The notes below the pieces were generated by a model. That model was not told the DNA's origin, made no database searches, and saw nothing but the letters and a program-made list of their open reading frames with translations. Shown here piece after piece: positions 10,402 to 62,651 of a stretch of 64,000 bases of DNA. The position numbers were made by a program, and so were the translations under genes. The DNA lies in contig CAAGHL010000070.1 of NCBI GenBank assembly GCA_900769665.1, positions 13,620 through 77,619 on the forward strand. Reading direction: 5' to 3'. This DNA is from Clostridia bacterium. Lineage in GTDB: Bacteria; Bacillota; Clostridia; Christensenellales; CAG-314. Within the stretch, counting starts at the first letter, position 1, and each line of letters opens with the position of its first letter.

Positions 10402-11832
10402 CTATTTTGTCTTGTTGAAGTAGTCTTGCACTATCTTGTACAGCATGCCCGTGTCGTCGTATTCGCCGGGATTGGTTGCTCCGACAGTGCCGACCTTGCT
10501 CCAAGCCTCGGCAATTTCCTCATATGTTGCCGTTGTAATGTCCACTTTCAGTTCGCCTGCGCCAAGACACATTTTGTTGACGTACAATCCCCAACTGTTG
10601 TCCCAATCGCCTACGGAGATAGCTTTGTAATTCCAAATTGTCCAGCCAAAACCTCTCTTGTCGTACTCGGCAAGCCATTTGTCCCATTCCGCCTCGTTGT
10701 CAAAGAAAGTAAATTCCCCTATTAGATACGGGACATCGAACGCCTTGAACGAATATGTAAGGTCTTGCGCCCAATAAAACATATCGTAACTGATGGTGCC
10801 GCTGTTCCAATTGTACATATGCAATTGGTACATGACATTGTTCCAACCAAACAACGACGGATCGATGCAACTGCCAAACATCCAACAAAATTCCACGGAT
10901 ATTAGGTGGTTTTGCGTGTCTACATCCCGTATTGCGCGGTACAATTTGTCCATCACTGCCGCTTGCTTGCGCGTAGTAGACGGCGTATTGCGGTCGACGG
11001 GTTCGTTCATCAGGTCATATGCGCCTATCGTTTGGGACAAGTCTTTCCGCACGGTGGCGTAACGCTCGGCAATTGTTTTCCATAACAAGCACATGTCTTC
11101 CTGTGCTTTTTCGTTGGTCCAAAAGTCGATTGTACGCAAGCCGCTGTGCTCGTAACCGTTTTGTCCGCCTTCTACTCCGTGCATATCCAATATAGCGTAC
11201 AAGCCGTTTGCCTTGCATTGATCCAAGAACCAGTCCAATCGTTTGTACCACTCGTTTTTCATCACGTAGTTGTTGTTGGCGTCCAACTCCATAAAGTTAC
11301 CAAAATACATCGGCAACCGCACAGTGTTGAAACCGAGTTGCTTGACGTAGACAAAGTCGACTTCCTGTATAAAGTTATCTTGGTAAATATCCACAAGCTT
11401 GTCGGCTTTTTCCTTGCCGAAACGCTCGGTAAGAATGTCCAATTCGTCCTGATAGAAACTTTCCTTGTAACTTTCCACAATTCCGTTTTCGTTTACTTTG
11501 GCAGGTTTTCCGTCTTTATCGAGCTCCACGCCTACGCTGTGCGTGCAAAGCCAACCCTCGGTAATCAACCAGTTGCCGAAGTTAATTCCGCGAAATGTTA
11601 CGCGATTGCCGTCGGCGTCGTACACGCCTCTGCCGTTTGCACGCAACGGTTGGTCGACGGCAGTTTCCCCCGTCCATTGTATTTTGTCAGGTACGGGCGC
11701 GTAGTAGTTGTCGGCAAAAACAGCGACTTTTACAAGCAATATACCTGTAATCAGTGCAAATACAAGCACTATTGCCACCACTACAATCAACACGCGTTTC
11801 AATACGGAACGCTTTTGTTTTGCCTCTTCCAC
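10402..11832 (-). CDS. Glycoside hydrolase family 5 (cellulase/mannanase-like) with N-terminal membrane anchor
   Basis: TM helix VLIVVVAIVLVFALITGILLV, FNTVRLP, and catalytic NEP (YDLMNEPV). Start set to GTG 11830-11832 behind AAAGGAGA; the ORF-track start at 11895 has no RBS. Confidence 0.8.
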   Translation of the reverse strand: MEEAKQKRSVLKRVLIVVVAIVLVFALITGILLVKVAVFADNYYAPVPDKIQWTGETAVDQPLRANGRGVYDADGNRVTFRGINFGNWLITEGWLCTHSVGVELDKDGKPAKVNENGIVESYKESFYQDELDILTERFGKEKADKLVDIYQDNFIQEVDFVYVKQLGFNTVRLPMYFGNFMELDANNNYVMKNEWYKRLDWFLDQCKANGLYAILDMHGVEGGQNGYEHSGLRTIDFWTNEKAQEDMCLLWKTIAERYATVRKDLSQTIGAYDLMNEPVDRNTPSTTRKQAAVMDKLYRAIRDVDTQNHLISVEFCWMFGSCIDPSLFGWNNVMYQLHMYNWNSGTISYDMFYWAQDLTYSFKAFDVPYLIGEFTFFDNEAEWDKWLAEYDKRGFGWTIWNYKAISVGDWDNSWGLYVNKMCLGAGELKVDITTATYEEIAEAWSKVGTVGATNPGEYDDTGMLYKIVQDYFNKTK

Positions 11833-11992: not shown

Positions 11993-13459
11993 CTACTCTG
12001 CTTTATCATTGCAGTCCGTTGCGGTGTTGTCAACTTGTTCTGCGGCTTGTTGCTCCGTAGCGACATCGACGTTACCTTCCACATCGGCGTTAATTTGCAA
12101 CAACTCCTTGCGACGAAATTCCCCTGCTTGCTTACGCACGATTACCGACGGAACGAACACAAACGCCGCCGCCACTGCGGAAAACAAAAACAATTCAAAC
12201 GGGTAAACTTTGTCGCCGATATTGTATCCGCTGTTTGACGTAATCAAATCGTTGTAGGATTTCAATTCTTCGCCGAATCCGTTGATAATAAGCGGCGTAA
12301 ACAGACTTGCCAATATCATCGGGACGGTAACGTAAATGATGATACGCACACCTTGGAAGCAGCCTGCCTTGTCCTTTGGCGTGTAGTCGCGTGCCGACGC
12401 GTTAAACAAGCCCGCAACAAGCAAACTTGCACCCTCGATAAGCGTCCCGCCGACGACAAACAACGCAAAAGTCAATGTTTTATCTCCACCGCAAAACTTG
12501 ATTAAGTACACAATCAGTCCGCCCAAAACGCCTGCCGCCGCAACGGGGTAGAAAAACTTTTCTTTGCCGAATTTGTCCATCAGTTTGCCGCCGATAACGG
12601 CAATCACCGCCGACAGCAACACCACAAGCGCAAGCGGCAACACATATCCGTCGCCGAAACCTAAGGTGTATTGCAAAAGCACAATCATGTACGGTTGCCA
12701 CAGTTGCATGGAAAGTCCGCTAAACATCATGCCGAACAAACACACGTAAATCATCTTATGTTTGACAAAACTTTTCGGACGAAATCCGTAAGCCACTTCG
12801 GCAAAGTATTTTCCGCTACGATCGGGGCGCAACACGGGGCTGTCCTTCATTAAAAACAATCCCACAACGCCGGACAGCGACGTCATGCCGCCAAGTAGCA
12901 AAAAGAATGTCGTCCAGTTACCGTTTTGCGTCAATCCGTCAAAGCCTACAAAAATAATCATCAATGCGGCAACAGGCATAATGGACAATACCACGTCCAC
13001 AAAGCCGCGGTTGGTGATGTCCGTAACGTCGGTAACCCATGCGGAAAAAGCCGCATCGTTGGAAAGCGAGCCGAACACCGTCATTACGCAGTCCATAATA
13101 ACAAACACCACTACCACGGTCACGACGCTTTCCGCCGAAACGTGGTTGTTGCCAAACAGCGCAAAAGCCGCCGTCACCAAGCCCCACACAATGTAGCCGA
13201 AGCACACAAAAACCTTGCGTTTGCCTACACGGTCGGTCAGTACTCCGCCGAAAATGGACACCAACGCCGCAACGACTGCACTTGCCGCAACGGTAGCCGA
13301 ACTTGCCCATGGTTCCATGGTAATGTTCTTTTGTATGTAGGTGGAAAAATAGATATTCTCCACAATCCAAGCAATCTGTCCCATAAGACCGAATATTGCC
13401 ACGGACAACCACACTTTCCAACCGAGTTTGTTGGACTTGCGTACTACTACTTCCGCCAT
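11993..13459 (-). CDS. MFS transporter (sugar:cation symporter-like)
   Basis: About 12 hydrophobic segments and the LTDRVGKRK loop. Start ATG 13457-13459 behind GGAGGT. Acidic C-terminal tail. Confidence 0.8.
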   Translation of the reverse strand: MAEVVVRKSNKLGWKVWLSVAIFGLMGQIAWIVENIYFSTYIQKNITMEPWASSATVAASAVVAALVSIFGGVLTDRVGKRKVFVCFGYIVWGLVTAAFALFGNNHVSAESVVTVVVVFVIMDCVMTVFGSLSNDAAFSAWVTDVTDITNRGFVDVVLSIMPVAALMIIFVGFDGLTQNGNWTTFFLLLGGMTSLSGVVGLFLMKDSPVLRPDRSGKYFAEVAYGFRPKSFVKHKMIYVCLFGMMFSGLSMQLWQPYMIVLLQYTLGFGDGYVLPLALVVLLSAVIAVIGGKLMDKFGKEKFFYPVAAAGVLGGLIVYLIKFCGGDKTLTFALFVVGGTLIEGASLLVAGLFNASARDYTPKDKAGCFQGVRIIIYVTVPMILASLFTPLIINGFGEELKSYNDLITSNSGYNIGDKVYPFELFLFSAVAAAFVFVPSVIVRKQAGEFRRKELLQINADVEGNVDVATEQQAAEQVDNTATDCNDKAE

Positions 13460-13486
13460 ACTGACCTCCACAAAGGTTATCGCTTT

Positions 13487-13515
13487 ATTGTACCACACAT
13501 CTATTTATATTTCAA
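13487..13515 (-). promoter_or_regulatory. Sigma-A promoter candidate for the MFS gene
   Basis: Minus strand: TTGAAA, 17 nt, TACAAT, with TGg extended -10. Confidence 0.5.
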
Positions 13516-13654
13516 GTTTTATCGAAAAATTTAGCACCGTACAACGAATTTTATTTCGATTTGCAAGTAGAAAATCAGGAATATGCAAGCAATCAATCTG
13601 TTCGATAAGCAAACGAACTCGTTTAATGCGACAGTCACAGCATTACCTTTTCGG

Positions 13655-13855
13655 GAACGCCTGATGCTATATCGCCTCGGCAATGTCCCACGAAAAACGG
13701 TCTGATACCTCCCTCCAGTCGGAGCAAAGAAGTAATAGTCCGCACTCATTTTTATGCGCCCTCCTTCCGAGGTTTTCGTTTGGACACCGCCTCGCCTCCC
13801 ATTGCAAATAGGTCGACGTAATTAAAATGTCGCTGCGTGGTAACACCGTGACTGT
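13655..13855 (+). repeat. Degenerate, rearranged copy of the B-type intergenic repeat
   Basis: Shares gaacgcctgatgct, tagtccgc..tatgcgcc and atgtcgctg.gtgg.aaca blocks with 16502-16658. Interrupted by about 60 nt. Confidence 0.4.
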
Positions 13856-14045
13856 CACATATCCAACTCTTGGAGAAAATGAGATTTTTCATCGACAAAC
13901 GTTGGTAGCTTCAACTTATCGAACCGATTTTAACTTATCTTTCAAGCAAATACACCTTTCAAAACTTCATAGTAAATCGACGCAAAGCCAATCGATTTAA
14001 CCAATCAATTTTTCGCCGCATCTTTCACTCGTTGCCCCACCATTC

Positions 14046-14225
14046 CACTACCCCGACCACCCACCCCTCAAGGTCAAAGAACTTTATTATAAAGTAGCAT
14101 GCGAGGCGCGACCTACTTTGTCGCAACGTGGCAATCTCGCGGAAGCACCATTGTCGCAAGGTTGCTTTCCAGCAGATCCCCACGTCGCGACAAGTACAGT
14201 CGCTCCTCGGGATGACACTTTATTG
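14046..14225 (+). repeat. A-type intergenic repeat, full-length copy (A1)
   Basis: The left part (cactaccccga ccaccc..ctcaaggtcaaagaactttatta) matches 16491-16500 plus 16659-16712. The right part, 14126-14216, is the reverse complement of 18910-18994. Confidence 0.8.
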
Positions 14226-14236
14226 CATACTAACAC

Positions 14237-14390
14237 TCACTTAATCATTTTCTACCAACTAAGTGTTTGGTGGGCAAGGTGTTGCCCCACGGCGACATCG
14301 GAGCGTAGGCACATACAACTGAGAGCGGTCAACAAGTGATATTGCTCTACGCGGAGCGAGCATCAGGCGTTCGCAGTGGGACAATGCCTT
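14237..14390 (-). repeat. B-type repeat, inverted copy (B2), MITE-like
   Basis: The reverse complement aligns to 16502-16658 at about 80% identity over about 100 nt (ctgcgaacgc.tga.gctcgctccgc..agagcaata ... gcctacgctccgatgtcgc.gtg.ggcaac). Confidence 0.7.
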
Positions 14391-14492
14391 GACCGACAAA
14401 CACGTTTACTGCCAATCGCCCTCTACTTGCCTCCGCGGCGAGCGGCGAGAAAGGGGTGCGGGGAAAACGACGTTCGTTTGCCCCGCATACGC

Positions 14493-14521
14493 TTGACGTC
14501 AGTAAAATAATACAATATAAT
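14493..14521 (+). promoter_or_regulatory. Sigma-A promoter candidate for pepF
   Basis: TTGACG (14493-14498), 17 nt, TATAAT (14516-14521). Confidence 0.6.
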
Positions 14522-14614
14522 ATATCTAATATTTGTCCGAAGCGACCCGTCCGCCACGGTATGTCGCGCCACAAAAATGGCAACACTTATTTGGACAAAG
14601 AAGGAGCTAATAGT

Positions 14615-16399
14615 ATGAGTTACACCAACCGCAATGAAATCCCCGCAAAATATACTTGGAACCTCGGCGACATCTTCGCCACACCAGACAAATGGGAAGA
14701 GGCTTTCAACCAACTGTCCAAGGAGTACACCGCTTTGTGCGACTTCCAAGGCAAGCTTGCAAACCGCGACAGTTTGCTTGAATTTTTCAAGCTGTCCGAC
14801 AAAATCGACCTCAAATTGGAGCAACTGTACTGCTACGCTTCCATGGCTTACAACGAGGACAGCCAAGACTCCGTACGTCAAGCACGTTTCAGCAAAATTT
14901 ACGGCTTACTCAACAAGTATGACGCCGCAACAAGCTTTGTTTCTCCGGAATTGTCGGCAATCCCCGACGAGCAACTGAAAGCATTCATTGCCGATCCCGC
15001 TTTTTCCGACTACGACGTCATCCTTACCAACCTACTTGAAGGCAAAGCGCACATTTTGTCCGAAGCGGAAGAAAAACTCATGGCAAAAGTCGGCACGTTC
15101 TCCGAGCAATTCCACGAAGTTTTCAATCGCTTGGACAGCGGCGACATCAAGTTTGACAAAATAACCGTCAACGGCGAGGAAGTCCAACTCGGTCACGGCA
15201 CATACAGTATGCTGTTGCAAAACAAGGATCAAGCTGTGCGTAAACTTGCGTTTGAAACCTACTACAAGGCATATGTCGACGTAATAAATACGCTTGCCGG
15301 CGTTTACGAAGGCAGCGTAAAGGCGGACTGGTTCCGCGCCGAAGCTCGTCACTTCAACTCCACAATGGAAATGGCACTGTTCTACGAACATGTAGACAAA
15401 GCCGTGTACGACAACCTTATCAAATGCACGCACGAGTCGCTTGCGCCACTACATCGCTACATTGCGCTACGCAAAAAACTGATGGGTTTGGAAACGCTCA
15501 ACATGTACGACTTGTACGTGTCCATATTTGAAGACGCCGACATCTCCTGCGAATACGAAGAGGCTTGCGAGCTTGTGTTGAAAGGCTTGGCACCCCTCGG
15601 CGAAGATTACCTAAAAGTCGTGCGCGAAGCATTTGCCAACCGCTGGATTGACGTACACGAAACGCCGACAAAGCGTAGCGGCGCATACAGCATGGGCGTA
15701 AAGGGCGTACACCCCTACATGCTACTCAACTACCAAAAAACCACGCACGACATCTTTACAATCGCGCACGAAATGGGACACTCCATGCACAGCTATTACA
15801 GCGAGTTGACGCAACCGCAAGCAAAAAGCGACTACAAGATTTTCGTTGCCGAAGTTGCTTCCACATGCAACGAAGTGTTGTTGCTAAAATATTTGCTAAA
15901 AACGGAAACCGATCCCGCCGTCAAAAAATACTTGCTGCAATACTACTTGGATATGTTGCGCACCACGCTGTACCGTCAAACAATGTTTGCCGAGTTTGAA
16001 CAAATTTCCCACGACATGGCGGAAAAGGGCGTACCTTTCACCACCGAAGCACTGTGCGAAAAATACTTGGCACTCAACAAAATGTACTACGGCGAAGCAG
16101 TCCACCACAACGAAGAAATCAAGTACGAGTGGGCGCGTATACCGCACTTTTACCGCGCATTTTACGTGTACAAGTACGCTACCGGTATCATTTCGGCAGT
16201 GTGCATAGCGGAAAAAATTCTCAGCGAAGGCGCACCCGCATTGGCGGCTTACCGCAAGTTTTTGACGCTTGGCGGCAGCATGGACCCCGTGTCGGAATTG
16301 AAAGTGGCAGGCGTAGACCTTACGACGGAAGAACCCTTCAAAATCGTTGCAAAGAGCTTCGAAGACACGCTCAACCAATTGGAAGAACTGTGTAAGTAA
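14615..16399 (+). CDS. pepF: Oligoendopeptidase F (M3B metallopeptidase)
   Basis: HEMGH zinc site (IAHEMGHSMH) and a 594-aa length typical of M3B. ORF 14456..16399 trimmed to ATG 14615 behind GAAGGAG. Confidence 0.9.
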   Translation: MSYTNRNEIPAKYTWNLGDIFATPDKWEEAFNQLSKEYTALCDFQGKLANRDSLLEFFKLSDKIDLKLEQLYCYASMAYNEDSQDSVRQARFSKIYGLLNKYDAATSFVSPELSAIPDEQLKAFIADPAFSDYDVILTNLLEGKAHILSEAEEKLMAKVGTFSEQFHEVFNRLDSGDIKFDKITVNGEEVQLGHGTYSMLLQNKDQAVRKLAFETYYKAYVDVINTLAGVYEGSVKADWFRAEARHFNSTMEMALFYEHVDKAVYDNLIKCTHESLAPLHRYIALRKKLMGLETLNMYDLYVSIFEDADISCEYEEACELVLKGLAPLGEDYLKVVREAFANRWIDVHETPTKRSGAYSMGVKGVHPYMLLNYQKTTHDIFTIAHEMGHSMHSYYSELTQPQAKSDYKIFVAEVASTCNEVLLLKYLLKTETDPAVKKYLLQYYLDMLRTTLYRQTMFAEFEQISHDMAEKGVPFTTEALCEKYLALNKMYYGEAVHHNEEIKYEWARIPHFYRAFYVYKYATGIISAVCIAEKILSEGAPALAAYRKFLTLGGSMDPVSELKVAGVDLTTEEPFKIVAKSFEDTLNQLEELCK

Positions 16400-16405
16400 A
16401 AATAC

Positions 16406-16445
16406 AACGTCGATGCGCTTGTCGTGTCGACGTTCTTTTTTGTTT
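16406..16445 (+). terminator. Rho-independent terminator after pepF
   Basis: AACGTCGA, loop, TCGACGTT, followed by CTTTTTTTGTTTTG. Confidence 0.8.
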
Positions 16446-16501
16446 TGTTCCCACCGACTTGTTTGCAAGATATGGTCGGTTTGCACGAACCACTACCCCG
16501 A

Positions 16502-16658
16502 AAATCGCCTCGCTATTACCACGCTGCGAACGCTTGAAGCTCGCTCCGCACAGAGCAATATAGATATAGTCCGCTTTCAATCTTATGCGCCTACGCTCCG
16601 ATGTCGCTGTGTGGCAACAACTCGGCTCCACCCCTTCGGGAAAGGCAATGATTTTTTT
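16502..16658 (+). repeat. B-type repeat, forward copy (B3), apparently inserted into an A-type repeat
   Basis: It separates cactaccccga (16491-16501) from ccacccctcaaggtc (16659-), which are contiguous at 14046-14075. GA is present at both junctions. The ends aaatcgcct and aggcaatgattt form an imperfect terminal inverted repeat. Confidence 0.65.
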
Positions 16659-16735
16659 GACCACCCCTCAAGGTCAAAGGACTTTATTACAACGCACGAC
16701 CTATTGTTGCAATCCGTTTGAAAGCAACCTTTGCA
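16659..16735 (+). repeat. A-type repeat, partial copy (A2)
   Basis: gaccacccctcaaggtcaaaggactttattacaacgcacgacctattgttgcaa matches 14055-14126. Confidence 0.7.
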
Positions 16736-16758
16736 AAACTATAACATTTCCTTAAAAC

Positions 16759-16812
16759 TGCTCAATATTTTTGCCGAATATTGCTCAATGAAAACGCCGA
16801 ATATTGCTCAAT
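16759..16812 (+). promoter_or_regulatory. Three direct repeats of TGCTCAAT phased exactly 23 bp apart (candidate regulator-binding array)
   Basis: TGCTCAAT at 16759-16766, 16782-16789 and 16805-16812. The last two sit within identical 17-mers, GCCGAATATTGCTCAAT (16773-16789 and 16796-16812). Confidence 0.5.
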
Positions 16813-16840
16813 CCTTGACAAATGGCGAAAAAAACTAACG

Positions 16841-16869
16841 TTGACAAGTAGGTCTTACTACAATATAAA
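16841..16869 (+). promoter_or_regulatory. Orphan near-consensus sigma-A promoter
   Basis: TTGACA (16841-16846), 17 nt, TATAAA (16864-16869). There is no plus-strand CDS downstream before the hairpin at 17082-17110. Confidence 0.5.
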
Positions 16870-16875
16870 GCCGAC

Positions 16876-17115
16876 ATCGACAATAAAGTTACCGTCAACA
16901 ATTGTCGGGATACTCGCAAAGGGCGCTCTTGTTTCCCCAAGGGCAGGGGAAGGCATAGATGCGAGGGCGTTCGCCGCAAGGACTGCGGCTCGGCTGAGGA
17001 CACGTTTTACACTTCGGCACTACTTGATCGGCTTAATGAGCCAAATACATAGTAGGCAATGTTATTTTCATTATGCAAGAAGCCCTCTTGCGGATTTTCC
17101 GCAAGAGGGCCTTGA
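16876..17115 (+). ncRNA. Candidate ~240-nt orphan transcript (sRNA or leader remnant); hypothetical
   Basis: Bounded by the orphan promoter and a 13-bp-stem hairpin. Local hairpins include CCGACA..TGTCGG and GCCGCA..TGCGGC. The only coding potential is a 12-codon micro-ORF (16959-16997) behind GGGGAAGG. No known RNA family recognised. Confidence 0.2.
17082..17110. terminator. Strong hairpin terminator downstream of the pilin-like gene (possibly bidirectional)
   Basis: GCCCTCTTGCGGA, TTT, TCCGCAAGAGGGC. On the minus strand it is followed by a T-rich tract. Confidence 0.75.
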
Positions 17116-17172
17116 TTGTTGGATCGAGTTGTCAATTGCGATAGAATACTCTATCGATTGTCGGGCAAACAC

Positions 17173-18810
17173 CTATTTGGAAACGATGTACCACGTGTCG
17201 CTACCAATTACTTCCGAAGTTGTTTTGCAACCTTCGCCGAGCAGAATTTTGCCAGTATAAGCGTTCTCAGGATCAACTGGTGTAACGCCGGGATTGTAAT
17301 TTTTGAATTTACCACCATTTACAGTAATCGTGCAACCTGCAGTGGCGCTATCTTCATGATTCAAAACATAAGATATTTTGTTGCTTGGTGTCGCAGTTTC
17401 AAAAGTACCACCATTGATAGTAACAGTTGCCTTACTTCCGCTAGAGCGTGCGGTACACACATAGATACAAGAGGTTTGTTCTGATGTTCCGTAGAAGTGA
17501 CCACCGTTGATTGTCAACTTGCCGTAGTTTCCTGCACGTACAGCACTTGTTACTTTGTTGGTATATGTCTTGTCCGATCCAATAACAGCACCGGTTTGGG
17601 CTTCACTACTATCATTTATGGTCAATTTACCACCCGAACCACCGATGTAGAATACAGATCCGTTGTTGGGCTTAACGCCATCAGCATATTCAAGTTTAAC
17701 AGTATGTCCGTTCAAATCAATGACAAATTTTTTGCCTGACATGTAGATTTCATCTGTAACGGTAACATCGGCAATAAATTTCAAATATGCGCCTTTCTTT
17801 AATTTTTCAATCTTTAATGCTTGCTCGCCGGTTGCGATCAAATAAGGACTTTCTTCCGTGCCAAGACCACCAACGAAATTGTTAACATCATCTTTTACGA
17901 TATCCACTTTCTTATCTTTCTTTACTTCAGCAGGAATAGTTGTAGCATTTTTAACCACATCCAATACGCTATCATCAGTAGCTGCAACAAGATTTATTTT
18001 TGCACCTTCTTCTGCTACAATTTTAACATCACCAGCACCATTATCAGTAGGAGATACAAGAACAACGTTTACTACAGCTTGCTTAGTAATCTCAAGTTTT
18101 CCTTCCTTAATTGTAAGGTTGCCACGAACTTCACCCTTTTCATAATAAGAGTGTGGAGCAACAGCAGTAATATTAACTTTATCAACAGTGCCATGGTGTT
18201 CCACACTATCAGTTACGGCGTCAATCGTAAGGTTGCCACCCTTTGTACGAATAACAACATCTTGCGCATTTGTATTTGCCACGTACTTAAGTTCGTCAAC
18301 TGTAGTTTCACCTGCATCGAAACCAACCTTTACTTCGAGAGGCTTTTCGGCTGAAGTTTCAATAGTTTCACCTGCCCAGTAGATAGAATACTTTTGGTTT
18401 TCTACTGCGGGAATTTCCTTGCTAAGGAATTGCCAATATTGATAATCCTTGACGTCCTTGTTGGTTTGCGTGTCGGGAATACCCGTGATACCTTTTTCCG
18501 TTTTGTAAACAAAGCAGTAGTTGACGCTGTCCCACAAAATTTCGTGTTCGCTTACGCTTGCGCTGATTTTTGCAACGTCAAAACCTGCGTTTTCCTTGAC
18601 TGCGCCGAGTACGTCGTAGACCGTGTCGTACTTTTCGGTGCTGAGTGCGATTGCCTTGTTGAGGTTAGACACAAGTGCCTCGTCCTTGGCTTGGTTTGCC
18701 TTGCTGATAAGACTGCTGAATGTAGGGATAAGTACTGCCGCAAGCAATGCTATTACGGCAACAACAATGATCAGTTCCACCAAAGTGAAACCTTTTTTAC
18801 TATTTTTCAT
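17173..18810 (-). CDS. Large type IV pilin-like protein (prepilin N-terminal cleavage/methylation domain plus ~510-aa C-terminal domain)
   Basis: N-terminus MKNSKKG/FTLVELIIVVAVIALLAAVLIPTF. The C-terminal third has repeated strands KLTINGGHFYG, TVTINGGTFET and ITVNGGKFKN. ATG 18808-18810 behind AAGGAGAA. Confidence 0.8.
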   Translation of the reverse strand: MKNSKKGFTLVELIIVVAVIALLAAVLIPTFSSLISKANQAKDEALVSNLNKAIALSTEKYDTVYDVLGAVKENAGFDVAKISASVSEHEILWDSVNYCFVYKTEKGITGIPDTQTNKDVKDYQYWQFLSKEIPAVENQKYSIYWAGETIETSAEKPLEVKVGFDAGETTVDELKYVANTNAQDVVIRTKGGNLTIDAVTDSVEHHGTVDKVNITAVAPHSYYEKGEVRGNLTIKEGKLEITKQAVVNVVLVSPTDNGAGDVKIVAEEGAKINLVAATDDSVLDVVKNATTIPAEVKKDKKVDIVKDDVNNFVGGLGTEESPYLIATGEQALKIEKLKKGAYLKFIADVTVTDEIYMSGKKFVIDLNGHTVKLEYADGVKPNNGSVFYIGGSGGKLTINDSSEAQTGAVIGSDKTYTNKVTSAVRAGNYGKLTINGGHFYGTSEQTSCIYVCTARSSGSKATVTINGGTFETATPSNKISYVLNHEDSATAGCTITVNGGKFKNYNPGVTPVDPENAYTGKILLGEGCKTTSEVIGSDTWYIVSK

Positions 18811-18909
18811 ATGAAATATTCTCCTTAAGATTACGCCACTATGAATCCATATGTGGTCTTACTAATACTCTGTTTTGCACATTTGCCTCAAATTGACACA
18901 TTGAATTAT

Positions 18910-18994
18910 GTCATCCCGAGGAGCGACATTTGCGACGTGGGGATCTGCTGGAAAGCACCCTTATTACAATGGCGCTTCCGCGAGATTGCCACGT
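18910..18994 (-). repeat. A-type repeat, inverted partial copy (A3)
   Basis: The reverse complement matches 14126-14216 (about 78 of 85 aligned bases, one 6-nt indel). Confidence 0.8.
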
Positions 18995-19170
18995 CAGCCG
19001 ACGTTCACGGCTTCCTCGCAATGACAATCACACGCAACGCAACCATTTTGTCGGCGTCTTTGCCATAATGTCATTACTTACAAATGTACACGTTTTTTGC
19101 ATACGCATCGATTTTTCGCACGCAAAAATACCCTTCACCAAGGTATGGTGCGGGTTACAGGAAGAATATT

Positions 19171-19614
19171 TCAGCACAGCAGCACTTGCAAAATGCTGTA
19201 CAAATTTTGCTTATCTAACGGCTCGATTTTCCAACGGGGGGGGGTAGAGCCGTTGTCGCAAAGGCGTTCGTACGCCTTGCGCTTTTTGCCGCCAAGGTAG
19301 TTGACAATGCCGTCAACGGTCATCATTGCCACAATCAAGGCTTGCGCCCACAGCACAAACTCCACCACGGTAAGCGGAATGATTGCGCTTACACCGCCGG
19401 CAAACATAACCGTCATTGCATGCGCGTAGACGTCCTTGCCGAGCAGGTTGCACACGGATTGTTGCAAAATGCCCTCGTTGGTGCACAGGCACAGTATTGC
19501 AAAGGTGAAGAAAAACAAAATGGCATGCAAAACGTTGACCGTCTTGCGACTTTTGCGCTCCACAACGACGGACAACACGATGTTTATCAACATGTAAACA
19601 ACCAAGATTGCCAT
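19171..19614 (-). CDS. Hypothetical small membrane protein
   Basis: ATG 19612-19614 behind GAGGAG; four hydrophobic segments. Contains a C9 tract (19236-19244) near the 3' end. Confidence 0.5.
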   Translation of the reverse strand: MAILVVYMLINIVLSVVVERKSRKTVNVLHAILFFFTFAILCLCTNEGILQQSVCNLLGKDVYAHAMTVMFAGGVSAIIPLTVVEFVLWAQALIVAMMTVDGIVNYLGGKKRKAYERLCDNGSTPPRWKIEPLDKQNLYSILQVLLC

Positions 19615-21631: not shown

Positions 21632-22276
21632 CTATTTGTGCGGCAGGTACTTGTCGGCGCGATTGTGCTTGACGGTGAGGTAACTGCGCCCGATGAGGAA
21701 TGCGCCGTCGGGGACGTCCTCGGTGACGGTTGTGCCGCATGCAACAAAGCAATCGTTGCCCATGGCGAGGGGCGCGACAAGGTTGCTGTTGCACCCGATA
21801 AAACAATTGTTGCCCACCACCGTGCGGTGCTTTGTTTTGCCGTCGTAGTTGACAAAAATCACGCCGCAACCGACGTTGGTGTTGCCGCCGACGGTAGCGT
21901 CGCCGATGTAGGCAAGGTGGCTGGCTTTTACGCCGTCGCCGAGGGTGCTGTTTTTGATCTCGACAAAGTTGCCCACGCGGCAATTGTTGCCGATTGTTGC
22001 GCCGTCACGCAGATGCGCATTGGGACCGACCATGCAGTTGTCGCCGACGGTGCTGTCGCAAATGCGCGAGGACTTGACCACGGTGTTGCAACCGATTTGA
22101 CTGTTGGATATGTAGCTGAAACTTCCGATTGTGCAACCGTCGTGTATCACTGTGTTACCCTTGACGACGGCATACGGCTCGATTGTTACGTTGTTGCCGA
22201 CCACGACGGACGGCTCGATGTAGTACACATATTGCTCCTTGAAATGAGTTTTTTGTATAGGGTTTCCATTCGCCAT
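21632..22276 (-). CDS. Left-handed beta-helix (hexapeptide-repeat) acetyltransferase resembling only the C-terminal domain of GlmU
   Basis: GNFVEIKNSTLGDGVKASHLAYIGDATVGGNTNVGCGVIFVNYDGKTKHRTVVG...LVAPL. ATG 22274-22276 behind AAGGTGG. No uridyltransferase domain upstream. Confidence 0.8.
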   Translation of the reverse strand: MANGNPIQKTHFKEQYVYYIEPSVVVGNNVTIEPYAVVKGNTVIHDGCTIGSFSYISNSQIGCNTVVKSSRICDSTVGDNCMVGPNAHLRDGATIGNNCRVGNFVEIKNSTLGDGVKASHLAYIGDATVGGNTNVGCGVIFVNYDGKTKHRTVVGNNCFIGCNSNLVAPLAMGNDCFVACGTTVTEDVPDGAFLIGRSYLTVKHNRADKYLPHK

Positions 22277-22506
22277 CACTAACCACCTTGGAGATGCCCT
22301 TTTCCGCGGCATAGCCGTTTGTAGGATTAACGACACTAACCGCACGAACCCCACCACGTGGGTACACGGCAGCTCGCTTCCGCACAAAATCTACGAAAAA
22401 TTTCTATCTCCAAGGATAAGTGAATTGATTAGTGATGACGATGGAAACCCTACGTGTTGATTTTTTACACAAACCCCTAGTGCCTCCACGGCAGTGGTGG
22501 CAACAG

Positions 22507-49316: not shown

Positions 49317-49674
49317 AAAAAGCGACGTAATATTTGAGGAGGAAGTAAACCGCGCGGCGCAATTTTTGCCCTTCGATGCGCTGAAAGGACTAAGCGAGGA
49401 ACTACGCAAGCGCGAGGAACGCCACTGCCGTGTGGAAAAGGTTGAGCTGTCGGAGGAGCAAGCGGCTGTCGTCAACAACGAGTTGTGCAAGTTGCAAGCA
49501 GGCGATGCCGTGCGCATACGCTTTTACTACCACGGGCACTACGTCACGTTGGACGGCGTGTTGACCAAGATTGTGCCGCAAATGCGCTACCTGACAATGG
49601 GTACGGCAAAAATTGGCTTTGACGACATATACGAAATAAAGCAAATCGACCCCTCAAGCGTCGACCCGACCTAA
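49303..49674 (+). CDS. YolD-like protein (accessory partner of Y-family polymerases)
   Basis: GTG start overlapping the polymerase stop, behind GGAGGA. FLPFDALKGL motif and size match YolD-like proteins as I recall them. Same gene order as yqjW-yqzH and uvrX-yolD. Confidence 0.65.
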   Translation: MSSNKKSDVIFEEEVNRAAQFLPFDALKGLSEELRKREERHCRVEKVELSEEQAAVVNNELCKLQAGDAVRIRFYYHGHYVTLDGVLTKIVPQMRYLTMGTAKIGFDDIYEIKQIDPSSVDPT

Positions 49675-49714
49675 CCCAACCTAACGTTGACGCAACCTAA
49701 CGTTGACGAGTAGG
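49668..49714 (+). repeat. Tandem 16-mer repeat (2 x CAACCTAACGTTGACG plus partial unit) starting 2 nt after the YolD-like stop
   Basis: 49677-49715 is identical to the reverse complement of 56650-56688. Followed by a G8 run (49713-49720). Confidence 0.85.
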
Positions 49715-49837: not shown

Positions 49838-49866
49838 CATACGTTGTTGTTTTTTGACGACAAACA

Positions 49867-50376
49867 CTACTCATCGTCCTCGTCATCGTCCTCATCTTCA
49901 TCGTCGTCTTCGCCGTCGCCATCCACATCGTCGAAGTCGTCGTCGAAATCGTCCGGGTAGTCGTCGGGATAGTCCTCGAGTTCGGTATCTTGGTTTTCCT
50001 CGTCCTCGAAGTCGTCGTCATCGTCTTCGTCGTCTTCCAACTCCTCAAGCGGAATGATGTCGTCTTCCCCGGGCACTTCGGTATCCTCGTCGTCGAGGTA
50101 GGTACGCCAGTCGTCGCTGTCCTCGTCGATGTCGTCGCTGATTTCCTGCGAAGCGCGCGCAAGGCAGTTTTCGCACATGTCTTCGTCCATGCCGATGTAT
50201 GCCGCCTTACAAGAGGGACACAACTTCAACGGTTCTTCCTCGTCGATGATGTCGTCGAGCAACATTATTTTGCTTTCCAAGCCAAGTTCCGACTTGCATA
50301 CGTCGCACATTTCCTCGTTTTCGGGGATATAATTCAGTTCGCAGCGCGGACATTTTTTATATTTAACCTTTCCCAT
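49867..50376 (-). CDS. Double zinc-ribbon protein with extreme poly-Asp/Glu C-terminal tail
   Basis: CPRC..CDVC and CPSC..CENC pairs in the first ~85 aa. The remainder is dominated by D/E and ends GEDDDEDEDDDEDDE. RBS AAGGTGA. Confidence 0.7.
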   Translation of the reverse strand: MGKVKYKKCPRCELNYIPENEEMCDVCKSELGLESKIMLLDDIIDEEEPLKLCPSCKAAYIGMDEDMCENCLARASQEISDDIDEDSDDWRTYLDDEDTEVPGEDDIIPLEELEDDEDDDDDFEDEENQDTELEDYPDDYPDDFDDDFDDVDGDGEDDDEDEDDDEDDE

Positions 50377-56649: not shown

Positions 56650-56690
56650 TCCTACTCGTCAACGTTAGGTTGCGTCAACGTTAGGTTGCC
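56650..56690 (-). repeat. Tandem 16-mer repeat starting 2 nt after the RluA-family stop codon
   Basis: Minus strand reads TGA gg caacctaacgttgacg caacctaacgttgacg agtagg, identical to 49677-49715. Confidence 0.85.
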
Positions 56691-57470
56691 TCAGTCGAGG
56701 TTGTCGCCCGTTTGCGGTTGAAAGTACAGCGGTTCGCCGTCGTCCACGTCACTGTCGGAAAAGTTTTCCACGTGGCTCTTGATGTCAAAGCGTTTCCACG
56801 GCTCGCTGTCGGGCGGATAGGCAACAAACACCATGCGTTCCTTGGTGACGGGGTGCGTAAGCTCCAGCTTGTACGCCCACAATGCAAGGTTTTGTCCGCG
56901 CACGATGTTGCCGCCGTAGCGTGCGTCGCCGTACACGGGGCAGTTGATTGCGCTCATTTGCACGCGAATCTGGTGGCTACGTCCCGTGCCGAGTTGCACC
57001 TTGACAAGGCTCAAACGCTCGTCGGAGTCCAACACTTCGTAGCTTAACTCGGCTCGCTTTGCGTCGTGGTCGCCAAAGGTTGCCACGTACACCGTGTTGG
57101 TGAGGCTGTTCTTTTTGAGGTAATTGACAAGGGTGTCCTTGCGTTGCTTTGGCGTGCCGACAACCGTCGTGAGGTAGGTTTTGGTCATTTCTCCGTCGAC
57201 GATTTGCTTGCTAAGCCGCTCCGCCGCCTTGCTGTTTTTGGCAAACACCATCACGCCGCCCGTGGGACGATCCAATCTGTGCACAAGCCCGAGGTACACG
57301 TTGCCGGGTTTGTCGTACTTGTTTTTGATGTAGTCTTTCAGTAGCGTCAGCAAGTCAAGGTCGCCGCTGGCGTCGGCTTGACTGGGGATATTTTGCGGTT
57401 TGACGACCACAAGTATGCTGTTGTCTTCGTGAAGAACGGCAACGTCGTCCATTGTAAAGTTTCTGCTCAT
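56691..57470 (-). CDS. RluA-family pseudouridine synthase
   Basis: HRLDRPTGG catalytic motif. Start trimmed to ATG 57468-57470 behind GGAGAT. Confidence 0.85.
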   Translation of the reverse strand: MSRNFTMDDVAVLHEDNSILVVVKPQNIPSQADASGDLDLLTLLKDYIKNKYDKPGNVYLGLVHRLDRPTGGVMVFAKNSKAAERLSKQIVDGEMTKTYLTTVVGTPKQRKDTLVNYLKKNSLTNTVYVATFGDHDAKRAELSYEVLDSDERLSLVKVQLGTGRSHQIRVQMSAINCPVYGDARYGGNIVRGQNLALWAYKLELTHPVTKERMVFVAYPPDSEPWKRFDIKSHVENFSDSDVDDGEPLYFQPQTGDNLD

Positions 57471-62317: not shown

Positions 62318-62651
62318 ACCCTTTCCCCAAAAACTTTGGGTAAATGGGAGAGGTTGGAGATGGGTGCGAAGGGCGACAACCGGGCGGTGCGCCGCACCAT
62401 AAACGAGCTTCTTTTTGCAATTTTGCACTGCGCGTCCTTAATCTTACGGCAAGGCAACGGCGGAGAGTGCGGTAGCCACTTAAAGAAACTGTGCGCTACG
62501 TATCCTTAGACATACCCGAGAGCAACGGCGGAGATTGGTGCAGATTGTGGCAACAGTTGCTCGACACACACGCCCAATGTACTAAGTCGTACATGACGGG
62601 TGGGTTGGGCAAGCGTAGCCGCAAGATGTGCCGATATACGCCGTTGTCCCA

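Follow-up and report, generated by a model that had tools for sequence, protein, structure and literature searches.

The window analysed here, a 64-kb stretch of DNA, contains a segment of 4.7 kb in which pepF and a gene for a pilin-like protein are enclosed by two copies, B1 and B2, of a palindromic repeat that we call B (Table 1). Orthologues of the pilin-like gene are common in the clade, at 44-84% identity. A promoter (TTGACG-17-TATAAT, 14493-14521) and a terminator (16406-16434) were predicted for pepF itself, and a terminator was also predicted for the pilin-like gene (17082-17110). On the pilin strand of IG3 a single consensus-like promoter was found (19074-19045), which lies upstream of B2.

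Table 1. Genes, repeats and other features of the pepF/pilin-like gene locus (positions in the window)
Feature	Position	Strand	Description
C1	13652-13845	+	Copy of the second hairpin-forming family, C
Second D-A copy	14031-14097		Unsplit, degenerate (IG1)
B1	14095-14216	+	122-nt B copy; profile score 116.7, E 8e-35; left end repeat degenerate (TAGCATGCGAGG), followed in order by h1 (GCGAC/GTCGC), central hairpin H (ACGTGGCAATCTCGCGGAAGC...GCTTTCCAGCAGATCCCCACGT), h2 and right end repeat CCTCGGGATGAC
C2	14244-14439	-	C copy with its core at 14277-14393; lies immediately upstream of the pepF promoter
pepF	14615-16399	+	Oligoendopeptidase F, 594 aa
Split D-A unit	16446-16501 (D half), 16661-16692 (A half)	+	
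C3	16502-16660	+	C copy inside a D-A repeat unit
b'	16693-16731	+	Diverged half B copy: outer hairpin and one H arm
'Orphan promoter'	16730-16875	+	Relic of the promoter/operator region of an AAA_14/DUF4143 ATPase gene
Pilin-like gene	17173-18810	-	545 aa, N_methyl prepilin-type N-terminal methylation motif
B2	18910-19025	-	116-nt B copy, orientation opposite to B1; profile score 107.1, E 8e-32; both end repeats intact (GTCATTGCGAGG ... CCTCGGGATGAC on the minus strand); h1 stem differs (AGCCG/CGGCT), h2 with a 6-nt deletion

Comparison of the intergenic region with the window by blastn aligned 14126-14217 with 18994-18909 at 86.96% identity over 92 columns (80 matches, 6 mismatches and one 6-nt gap; E 3e-21), confirming the facing inverted repeats that an earlier, sequence-only reading of this DNA had placed at 14126-14216 and 18910-18994. 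The ungapped core of the alignment (14126-14188 against 18932-18994) covers 63 nt at 92%, and the longest identical runs are 26 and 21 nt. The terminal 18-mer GTCATCCCGAGGAGCGAC has two exact occurrences in the window, against 0.04 expected by chance, and B1 and B2 were the sole copies matched in the 64 kb by a profile made from 12 family members. The pairing over about 90 nt was correctly described, but not the full extent of the arms, each of which is about 30 nt longer on one side; in these additional 30 nt the sequences of B1 and B2 differ and the hairpin is the same. B1 and B2 are, in addition, imperfect palindromes in themselves; the z-scores of their folds are -7.9 and -9.0 (B1) and -4.4 and -4.5 (B2). 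B2 lies upstream of the pilin-like gene, its left end (18910) being 99 nt from the ATG, in agreement with the distance of about 100 bp given before. A distance of 4.7 kb between the window's only two copies departs slightly from randomness and would suit a local hotspot.

The structure of B was determined from the window together with the fetched loci, in which 19 copies bounded by end repeats were found at about 16 sites, with lengths of 116-250 nt. A canonical copy has 116-125 nt, and variants with additional modules measure 160-250 nt. The terminal inverted repeats are 12 nt long (GTCAT[T/C][G/C]CGAGG ... CCTCG[C/G][A/G]ATGAC), and between them stand a hairpin of 5-7 bp, a central hairpin of about 60 nt and a second small hairpin; a 7-nt loop, about TGACCTT, is conserved in the first small hairpin. 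The build is modular, with a conserved core, variable inserts and alternative outer modules consisting either of an end repeat plus hairpin or of an E motif. Half copies, with the break in the loop of H, are common. Most copies are preceded by AT or T and followed by AT or AA, but the same dinucleotide stands on both sides in only about half of them, and these bases could belong to the end repeat. B has no coding capacity, since the ORF lists show chance frames only across copies.

Minimum free energy folds of individual copies gave a cloverleaf for single-stranded B. Each of the 10 base pairs in the small hairpins h1 and h2 showed compensatory double changes and was 98-100% paired; the observed covariation score was reached by none of 500 shuffles and collapsed in slid controls. 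Helix 1, examined in the terminal-inverted-repeat test, was 86% paired in five full canonical copies. Such strong covariation of the hairpins would also fit a function at the RNA level or in protein binding. Rfam 15 gave no match in the window at the gathering score and none in 13400-19400 at E<=1, the search for tRNA and tmRNA found none, and the folding energies of the top and bottom strands of B showed no consistent difference.

An exact 21-mer of B matched 16 contigs from human-gut metagenomes, corresponding to about 13 distinct loci. Apart from the repeats, these contigs have nothing in common with the window or among themselves, except for two pairs of overlapping contigs and one contig that matches the right flank of the window. 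All B copies are intergenic, occur in either orientation and are sometimes single, and their neighbours include genes for glycogen phosphorylase (glgP), DnaN, a GlgC-like NTP transferase, a class I tRNA synthetase and an F420-ligase-like protein. In contig L027, glgP is bracketed by two inverted B copies, a layout like that of the window but without any surface-protein gene. Two unrelated loci, L022 and L024, have in common a 185-nt B element of 93% identity, and their homology is limited to 1372-1558 and 130-315, respectively, ending one base past the end repeats on each side. Five contigs of sample ERZ780157, with coverage of 2.8-4.2x, contain six B copies; among these contigs, L015 matches the right flank of the window at 98.8% identity. 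The ERZ780157 contigs represent one species that has B at several sites.

A 20-mer of the 3' arm gave no extended match in the genome collection, which does not contain the source species; its two hits there, in a Planctomycetaceae MAG and in Paracoccus, matched over 20-22 nt only and were taken as chance. Two 20/21-mers of B and one 19-mer of C had no match in the viral collection, and a canonical B copy was unmatched in the plasmid and phage collections by distant blastn. A looser pattern (end repeat plus ACGTGGCAATC) retrieved four viral contigs from two viruses, which carry the left module or a simplified element only; this end-plus-hairpin module recurs in viral contigs of very different G+C content. 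Full-text searches of the literature with the end-repeat sequences returned unrelated primer matches only, and a keyword search nothing relevant. The B family looks undescribed, and resembles a MITE or a modular repeat of the BOX or Correia type.

We consider it probable that B1 and B2 belong, independently of each other, to this dispersed, non-coding palindromic family, likely a miniature mobile element, and that their pairing is incidental. The sequence-only reading had offered a dispersed palindromic family as its fallback, which is borne out, B being found next to housekeeping genes in many intergenic regions that are unrelated to one another. It stands there singly or in either orientation, which is what that reading had itself named as evidence against a cassette.

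In the window B sits among the other repeat families C, D-A and E, which appear to mark synteny breakpoints. The core of a C copy is about 125-135 nt. The sequence-only reading overlooked that C2 (14277-14393) and C3 (16504-16629) form a nested inverted pair hugging pepF, as well as the third copy, C1. A spacer (14217-14297) that recurs elsewhere too joins C2 to B1. The D-A unit interrupted by C3 is contiguous in five other copies (four loci and the degenerate copy of IG1), giving a clean filled and empty case for family C. The half copy b' adjoins the AAA_14/DUF4143 promoter relic and occupies the same relative position as the half copy at 11177-11241 of L030. The relic itself, described earlier as an orphan promoter, contains repeated TTGCTCAAT boxes and a -35 box; the ATPase gene to which it belonged is present in relatives and deleted in the window. 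It is fused to an E-type repeat motif (16831-16851), which contributes a second TTGACA with TATAAA 17 nt further on.

Gene order and orientation of the window are kept in all three same-species contigs and in all four related-species loci (five contigs). The presence of B varies among the orthologous spacers of the window, L030, L032 and L033, and the flanking DNA is also replaced in every case. L032 has a B copy at the B1 site only (same relative site, 81% identical) and lacks B2, while L033 has no B at the B1 site, fragments, and a reversed copy near the B2 site, which differs from B2 in position and is opposite to it in orientation. In L030 four full and two half copies occur within 6 kb. 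Orthologous pilin genes either have no B (L032) or have it on the far side of a conserved upstream motif (L030, L033). Because the neighbouring DNA is replaced as well, no clean empty site for B was found among the three orthologous spacers. The more distant relatives L005 and L009 have YpeB, pepF (+) and then a cellulase or cation-efflux gene (+), and in comparison with them pepF of the window is inverted relative to both conserved flanks. An inversion of pepF alone with C2 and C3 as its ends was considered and rejected, since pepF and the relic of the AAA_14 promoter, which lies beyond C3, have the relative order and orientation found in L011, L030 and L033.

The sequence-only reading had compared the layout to an invertible or mobilisable cassette. 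In such a cassette B1 and B2 would be recombinase sites for flipping or moving the 4.7-kb pepF and pilin-like segment, in the manner of phase-variable switches of surface proteins. The facing copies, with B2 close upstream of the pilin-like gene, agree with such a cassette, and so does the strain variability of the pilin side of B2, where L015 follows the window at 98.8% up to B and then continues with different DNA. However, neither a recombinase nor a transposase turned up in the 10 kb to either side or in 20 more ORFs of the window, using the precomputed Pfam labels of all called genes between 7173 and 28810 and our own Pfam scans, so that the earlier statement that the window has no such enzyme held over these regions. 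Furthermore, a single orientation was seen in the same-species contigs and related-species loci, where the comparison of synteny proposed earlier revealed no inversion; the pair is not conserved, one or the other copy being absent from L032 and L033; both enclosed genes are complete, pepF having its own promoter and terminator; and the same element lies beside housekeeping genes elsewhere. Since B is dispersed, the pair unconserved, the orientation constant and no enzyme was found, the cassette is not supported; we judge it very improbable, and it is already close to refuted. That B1 and B2 face each other across pepF and the pilin-like gene is incidental, and the pair does not delimit a functional cassette. 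The only likeness to invertible switches such as fimS, hin and the invertible promoters of Bacteroides is the presence of inverted repeats flanking a segment by a surface-protein gene; unlike those switches, B1 and B2 come without a recombinase or a second orientation, are much longer and palindromic, enclose two complete genes, and form a pair that is not conserved in relatives.

Other explanations concern what the B family does or leaves behind. It is possible, though on balance doubtful, that the repeats are scars or substrates of recombination, with B, C and E acting as homology patches or fragile palindromes in rare reshuffling, possibly including an inversion; this is compatible with a dispersed family and additional to it. 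The inverted position of pepF relative to L005 and L009 points in this direction, as do the breakpoints: homology stops exactly at a B terminus between the window and L015 and between the window and L033, that of L015 and L025 ends inside B, between h1 and H, and many half copies end at the H loop. The locus is also B-rich in several lineages, at non-orthologous positions. However, the short identical runs shared by B1 and B2 make a poor substrate for homologous recombination, the arrangement is stable clade-wide, and the block inverted with respect to the distant relatives is pepF plus AAA_14, given that the order of pepF and the AAA_14 promoter relic is that of L011, and not the B1-B2 interval. 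The coincidence of breakpoints and repeats could merely mark where alignment becomes impossible. A structured RNA or regulatory element, a transcribed cloverleaf acting in cis, for instance by stabilising the mRNA, as a site of processing or as a terminator-like hairpin, by which B2 would modulate the pilin-like gene, seems to us quite unlikely. The compensatory changes at every pair of both small hairpins, with conserved loops, would be expected of it, the promoter at 19074-19045 could make B2 a 5' leader or the spacer of a 147aa-pilin operon, and related modules of terminal inverted repeat plus hairpin occur in viral contigs in short gaps between co-directional genes. Nevertheless, Rfam gave no match even at the permissive threshold, the strand energies mark no strand as transcribed, the copies are found in either orientation, at variable distance from genes and often truncated, and orthologous pilin genes do without B or have it beyond the conserved upstream motif. 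Finally, the conserved 12-nt ends, the TGACCTT-type loops, the freely covarying stems, the central hairpin and the recurrence in viruses suggested that B might be the substrate of a hairpin-recognising enzyme common to gut Clostridia-like bacteria and some phages, which would make it a new REPIN-like system; candidates would include HUH/RAYT-like enzymes and other transposases or nucleases that act on single-strand DNA. We hold this idea as tentative and rather unlikely.

The preferred reading, a dispersed family of miniature elements, agrees with several known systems in general design. Correia elements (CREE/NEMIS) of Neisseria are non-coding intergenic elements of about 100-155 bp with long hairpins and size variants, and have end repeats of about 26 bp and a TA duplication. 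B is like them in size, lack of coding sequence, terminal inverted repeats, intergenic dispersal, hairpins, size variants and the occurrence of surface-protein genes among many neighbours, but shows no sequence similarity to them and has a 12-nt end repeat, and its target duplication, if any, may be AT; the three-hairpin cloverleaf with covarying small stems is a feature of B and not of Correia elements. BOX elements of Streptococcus pneumoniae are composed of boxA, boxB and boxC and have no 12-nt terminal inverted repeat, and the BIMEs of E. coli are built of REP units linked to RAYT transposases. Both resemble B as modular mosaics of stable secondary structure that cluster with other repeat types in spacers, and differ from it in sequence and in module set. 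Like REP sequences and REPINs, B is a short intergenic hairpin repeat; its stems covary and the whole element is palindromic. MITEs derived from insertion sequences, such as RUP from IS630-Spn1 and bcr1 of Bacillus cereus, share with B the small size, end repeats, lack of an ORF and occurrence in many copies, together with near-identical copies at unrelated loci (here L022 and L024) and presence or absence among relatives; for B, in contrast, neither an IS with the same ends nor a clear target duplication was found. An integron attC site (RYYYAAC / GTTRRRY with IntI) was rejected, as the ends of B are GTCATTGCGAGG / CCTCGCAATGAC and no integrase was present among the scanned proteins.

B most likely is, or was, a miniature non-autonomous mobile element hosted by an uncultured spore-forming gut bacterium and its relatives. 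An enzyme encoded elsewhere would copy the whole unit, one end repeat through to the other, and B would accumulate in long intergenic spacers alongside C, D-A and E; judging from breakpoints at element ends or at the palindrome centre, these repeats appear to be the places where synteny breaks over evolutionary time. No autonomous IS with B end repeats and no transposase was found in the window, in the 38 fetched loci or in the plasmid and phage collections. The 10 ORFs adjoining B copies that were scanned against Pfam encode housekeeping or defence-type proteins only, and Y1_Tnp had no match among the proteins scanned. A small GIY-YIG gene in L030, which abuts a half copy, was rejected as the mobilising enzyme, as it is absent at all other B sites.

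Since there is no evidence of a phase-variable or mobile cassette, the pilin-like gene should not be annotated as one. The analysis defines instead a family of small structured repeats, apparently not described before, from an uncultured lineage of the human gut, with its ends, modules, covarying hairpins and the companions C, D-A and E. Long intergenic spacers are filled with such repeats, contigs break at them and synteny breakpoints coincide with them; they therefore matter for assembly, for binning and for the reading of rearrangements. The B family also provides a handle for finding the enzyme that spreads it.

The inverted repeat that the sequence-only reading had placed around pepF and the pilin-like gene was confirmed. 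When the MFS-pepF spacer was compared with the window by blastn, 14126-14217 aligned to 18994-18909 with 87% identity over 92 columns, one 6-nt gap included (E 3e-21), and the ungapped core was 92% identical over 63 nt. The ~90-bp pairing was therefore real, but the arms proved longer than had been noted, each being part of a copy (B1 or B2) of a repeat family, B, whose terminal 18-mer is present at exactly two places in the window (chance expectation 0.04). The right copy had been put about 100 bp from the pilin-like start, and 99 nt were measured from the end of B2 to the ATG. Repeats make up most of the three spacers that adjoin pepF and the pilin-like gene, and these spacers are of unusual length; Rfam gave no match in the B1-B2 region, even at E<=1.

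Repeats and genes of the window, and B content of related loci
Feature	Position	Description	Detail
C1	13652-13845 (+)	copy of C, a second hairpin family	wider limits 13652-13845
D-A unit in IG1 (first spacer, before pepF)	14031-14097	unbroken	contains box 14061-14092
B1	14095-14216	B-family copy, imperfect palindrome	fold z-scores -7.9 and -9.0
C2	14277-14393 (-)	C-family copy	wider limits 14244-14439
pepF	14615-16399		
Split D-A unit	16446-16692	interrupted	box repeated at 16661-16692
C3	16504-16629 (+)	C-family copy	wider limits 16458-16659
Half copy of B	16693-16731		
Pilin-like gene	17173-18810	545 aa	prepilin-type N-terminal methylation motif
B2	18910-19025	B-family copy, imperfect palindrome	fold z-scores -4.4 and -4.5
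E-motif pair	49658-49714 / 56651-56707	57 nt, inverted, 84%	CTACTCGTCAACGTTAGGTTG exact at 49693-49713 and 56652-56672
L032 (related locus)		one B copy, at B1 site	none upstream of pilin-like gene
L033 (related locus), B1 site		no B	homology to window ends exactly at B1 terminus
L033, upstream of pilin-like gene		one B copy, orientation opposite to window B2	other side of conserved upstream motif
L030 (related locus)		4 full and 2 half B copies in 6 kb	

Alignment of the copies revealed a discrete element whose 12-nt ends are constant, GTCAT[T/C][G/C]CGAGG ... CCTCG[C/G][A/G]ATGAC, and paired ends, 116-250 nt long, occurred 19 times in the window and the compared loci. In the canonical order the left end repeat is followed by a small hairpin of 5-7 bp (h1), a central hairpin of ~60 nt (H; ACGTGGCAATCTCGCGGAAGCGCC ... 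GGTTGCTTTCCAGCAGAT[TG/CC]CCACGT), a second small hairpin (h2) and the right end repeat. Each of the ten base pairs in h1 and h2 showed compensatory double changes (paired in 98-100%), with stems including GCGAC, AGCCG, GAAAC, AAACG, GTGAC, ACGAC and AAAAC around a loop that stays approximately TGACCTT. None of 500 shuffles equalled the observed covariation score, and the signal collapsed in controls with partners slid by 1-3 columns. MFE folds of single copies were cloverleaves, and folding energies showed no consistent strand bias. Variants have one outer module exchanged for a motif termed E, CCTACTCGTCAACGTTAGGTTG, or contain inserts, and half copies that stop at the H loop are numerous.

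A scan of the genome collection returned only two matches, of 20-22 nt and in unrelated organisms, which were taken as chance. An exact B 21-mer, on the other hand, matched 16 human-gut metagenome contigs. Apart from two overlapping pairs and L015, which is 98.8% identical to the right flank of the window, these contigs have only repeat modules in common with the window and with each other. Every copy is intergenic, with neighbours encoding glycogen phosphorylase, DnaN, a GlgC-type nucleotidyl transferase, a class I tRNA synthetase, an F420-ligase-like protein and a GNAT protein. One sample (ERZ780157) held six copies on five contigs of 2.8-4.2x coverage, one of them from the window's species. 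The presence of B at many unrelated intergenic sites, including beside housekeeping genes, bears out the fallback proposal of a dispersed palindromic family.

The preferred proposal of the sequence-only reading, that B1 and B2 bound an invertible or mobilisable cassette, is not supported. Synteny with relatives showed pepF and the pilin-like gene in a single order and orientation, that of the window, in three same-species contigs and at four orthologous loci (five contigs) of related species, whose pilin-like proteins are 79-82% identical. The order at the related loci is DUF4037, a small ORF, pilin-like (+), optionally AAA_14/DUF4143 (-) and GIY-YIG (-), then pepF (-), MFS (+) and cellulase (+), and the B content varies between loci. 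As had been stated, no recombinase or transposase domain was found, either among the genes at 7173-28810 or in another 20 ORFs of suitable size. pepF is provided with a consensus promoter and terminator of its own. The varying B content, constant gene order, lack of a recombinase among the genes and ORFs scanned, and separate pepF signals together indicate that the B1/B2 pairing is incidental. At L027, glgP lies between two inverted B copies, reproducing the window layout without a surface-protein gene. The GIY-YIG nuclease gene (98 aa; L030 11711-12007, also L031 4049-4342) was not found in the window or any other compared locus; in L030 a half B copy (12032-12095) lies 25 nt from its start codon and a full B-type element (11463-11625) on its other flank.

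Compared with the distant relatives L005 and L009 (pepF 85-88% identical), pepF of the window has the opposite orientation with respect to both conserved flanks, and the sporulation genes preceding pepF in those loci are not in the window. This inverted arrangement is fixed throughout the window's clade and is not bounded by the B1-B2 interval. Homology between close strains or species tends to end at a B terminus or within B, and half copies are broken at the centre of the palindrome, suggesting that the repeats mark, and perhaps promote, rare rearrangements. In a comparison of L015 1356-1772 with window 19025-18780 and L025 2713-3003, L015 (98.8% identical to the window on the side of the 147-aa gene) carried a 77-nt E-motif insert within its B copy; beyond B its DNA is that leading in L025 to a GAP1-N2 (GTPase-associated, conflict-system) gene, not to the pilin-like gene.

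An orphan promoter had also been proposed in this segment. Promoter-like sequence is present (~16730-16875), but it matches the promoter region of the AAA_14/DUF4143 ATPase gene, which follows pepF in L011, L030 and L033 and has been deleted from both the window and L032. The relic retains repeated TTGCTCAAT boxes and a -35 box and continues into an E-type motif, the source of a second TTGACA, with TATAAA 17 nt on. The operator-like array, 3-4 direct repeats of (A)TTGCTCAAT upstream of the promoter (window 16730-16830, L011 2412-2540, L030 11062-11170), persists in the window despite the gene deletion.

Family C (~125-135 nt) combines a long outer stem, rich in compensatory changes, with a conserved centre, GCTCGCTCCGCGCAGAGCAATAT...TATGCGCCTACGCTCCGATG; besides the three window copies, at least 10 were found in metagenome or relative loci, and Rfam gave no match. 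C2 and C3 form a nested inverted pair closely flanking pepF. The D-A unit, CCCACCGACTTGTTTGCAAGATATGGTCGGTTTGCACGAACCACTACCCCGACC.CCCACCCCTCAAGGTCAAAGGACTTTATTA, is unbroken in IG1 and at four other loci, and its second window copy is interrupted by a 155-160-nt insertion bearing C3; the split and unbroken forms give family C a clean pair of filled and empty sites.

Several other repeats were observed. The E-motif pair encloses 6.9 kb with Imp-YgjV, PRK, Y_phosphatase3 and a LysR regulator, the first three of which adjoin the sporulation genes upstream of pepF in L009. Further short repeat families, at 62350-62651, 22258-22317 and 16905-17007 (the last 86% identical to L033 14965-15063), recur in the metagenome contigs and in L033. 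A 40-nt family (6408, 11920, 25522, 28948, 58557, 58659), with centre ATACGTAT and then a T-run, lies upstream of several genes, and a similar motif, ACGTATGCAAAAA..TGT.CATTTG, is found in relatives ahead of the pilin-like gene; in the window it is upstream of B2. Motifs of this type may represent a common promoter or operator signal. A degenerate GTC/ATC repeat of 3-nt period (49859-50046) would give a minus-strand ORF (49867-50376) a long Asp/Glu-rich stretch.

At 100% identity, the window matches a 107,657-bp scaffold of human-gut metagenome ERZ28566613. Its nearest named relatives, 'Candidatus Fimimonas' and 'Corallococcus sp. CAG:1435', are both assigned by NCBI taxonomy to Myxococcota (Myxococcaceae). 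Since SpoIIE, SpoIIR, SleB, YpeB, SipL and SpoIIID are encoded in the neighbourhood and related loci, the organism looks like a spore-forming Clostridia-type bacterium, and the assignment of such a lineage to Myxococcaceae seems to be an artefact of naming.

B behaves like Correia, BOX, BIME or RUP-type intergenic repeats; no sequence relatives were found in Rfam, plasmid or phage collections, or the searchable literature. Most likely B would be a non-autonomous miniature mobile element moved by an enzyme supplied in trans. The best evidence that the unit is copied whole comes from L022 and L024, two unrelated loci sharing the same 185-nt variant (93% identity), with homology limits running from end repeat to end repeat within one base. 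AT flanks both sides of only about half of the copies, clear target duplication was not seen, no clean empty site was found at the orthologous spacers compared, and no partner element or enzyme was found in the window, the compared loci, or plasmid or phage collections. The hairpin covariation would fit equally an HUH-type enzyme recognising single-stranded DNA or a role as RNA. IMG/VR contigs contain a module of GTCATTGCGAGG, a small hairpin and ACGTGGCAATC (L035 2999-3128; L037 1134-1177, 2246-2289 and 9175-9216; L038 4305-4346) in short gaps separating co-directional ORFs, with a simplified full palindrome in L035; the stems vary yet stay complementary (GGCGGC/GCCGCC, GGGGC/GCCCC). This combination of end repeat, hairpin and ACGTGGCAATC, found with further compensating stems in viral contigs whose G+C is 42-57%, suggests that B belongs to a wider superfamily.
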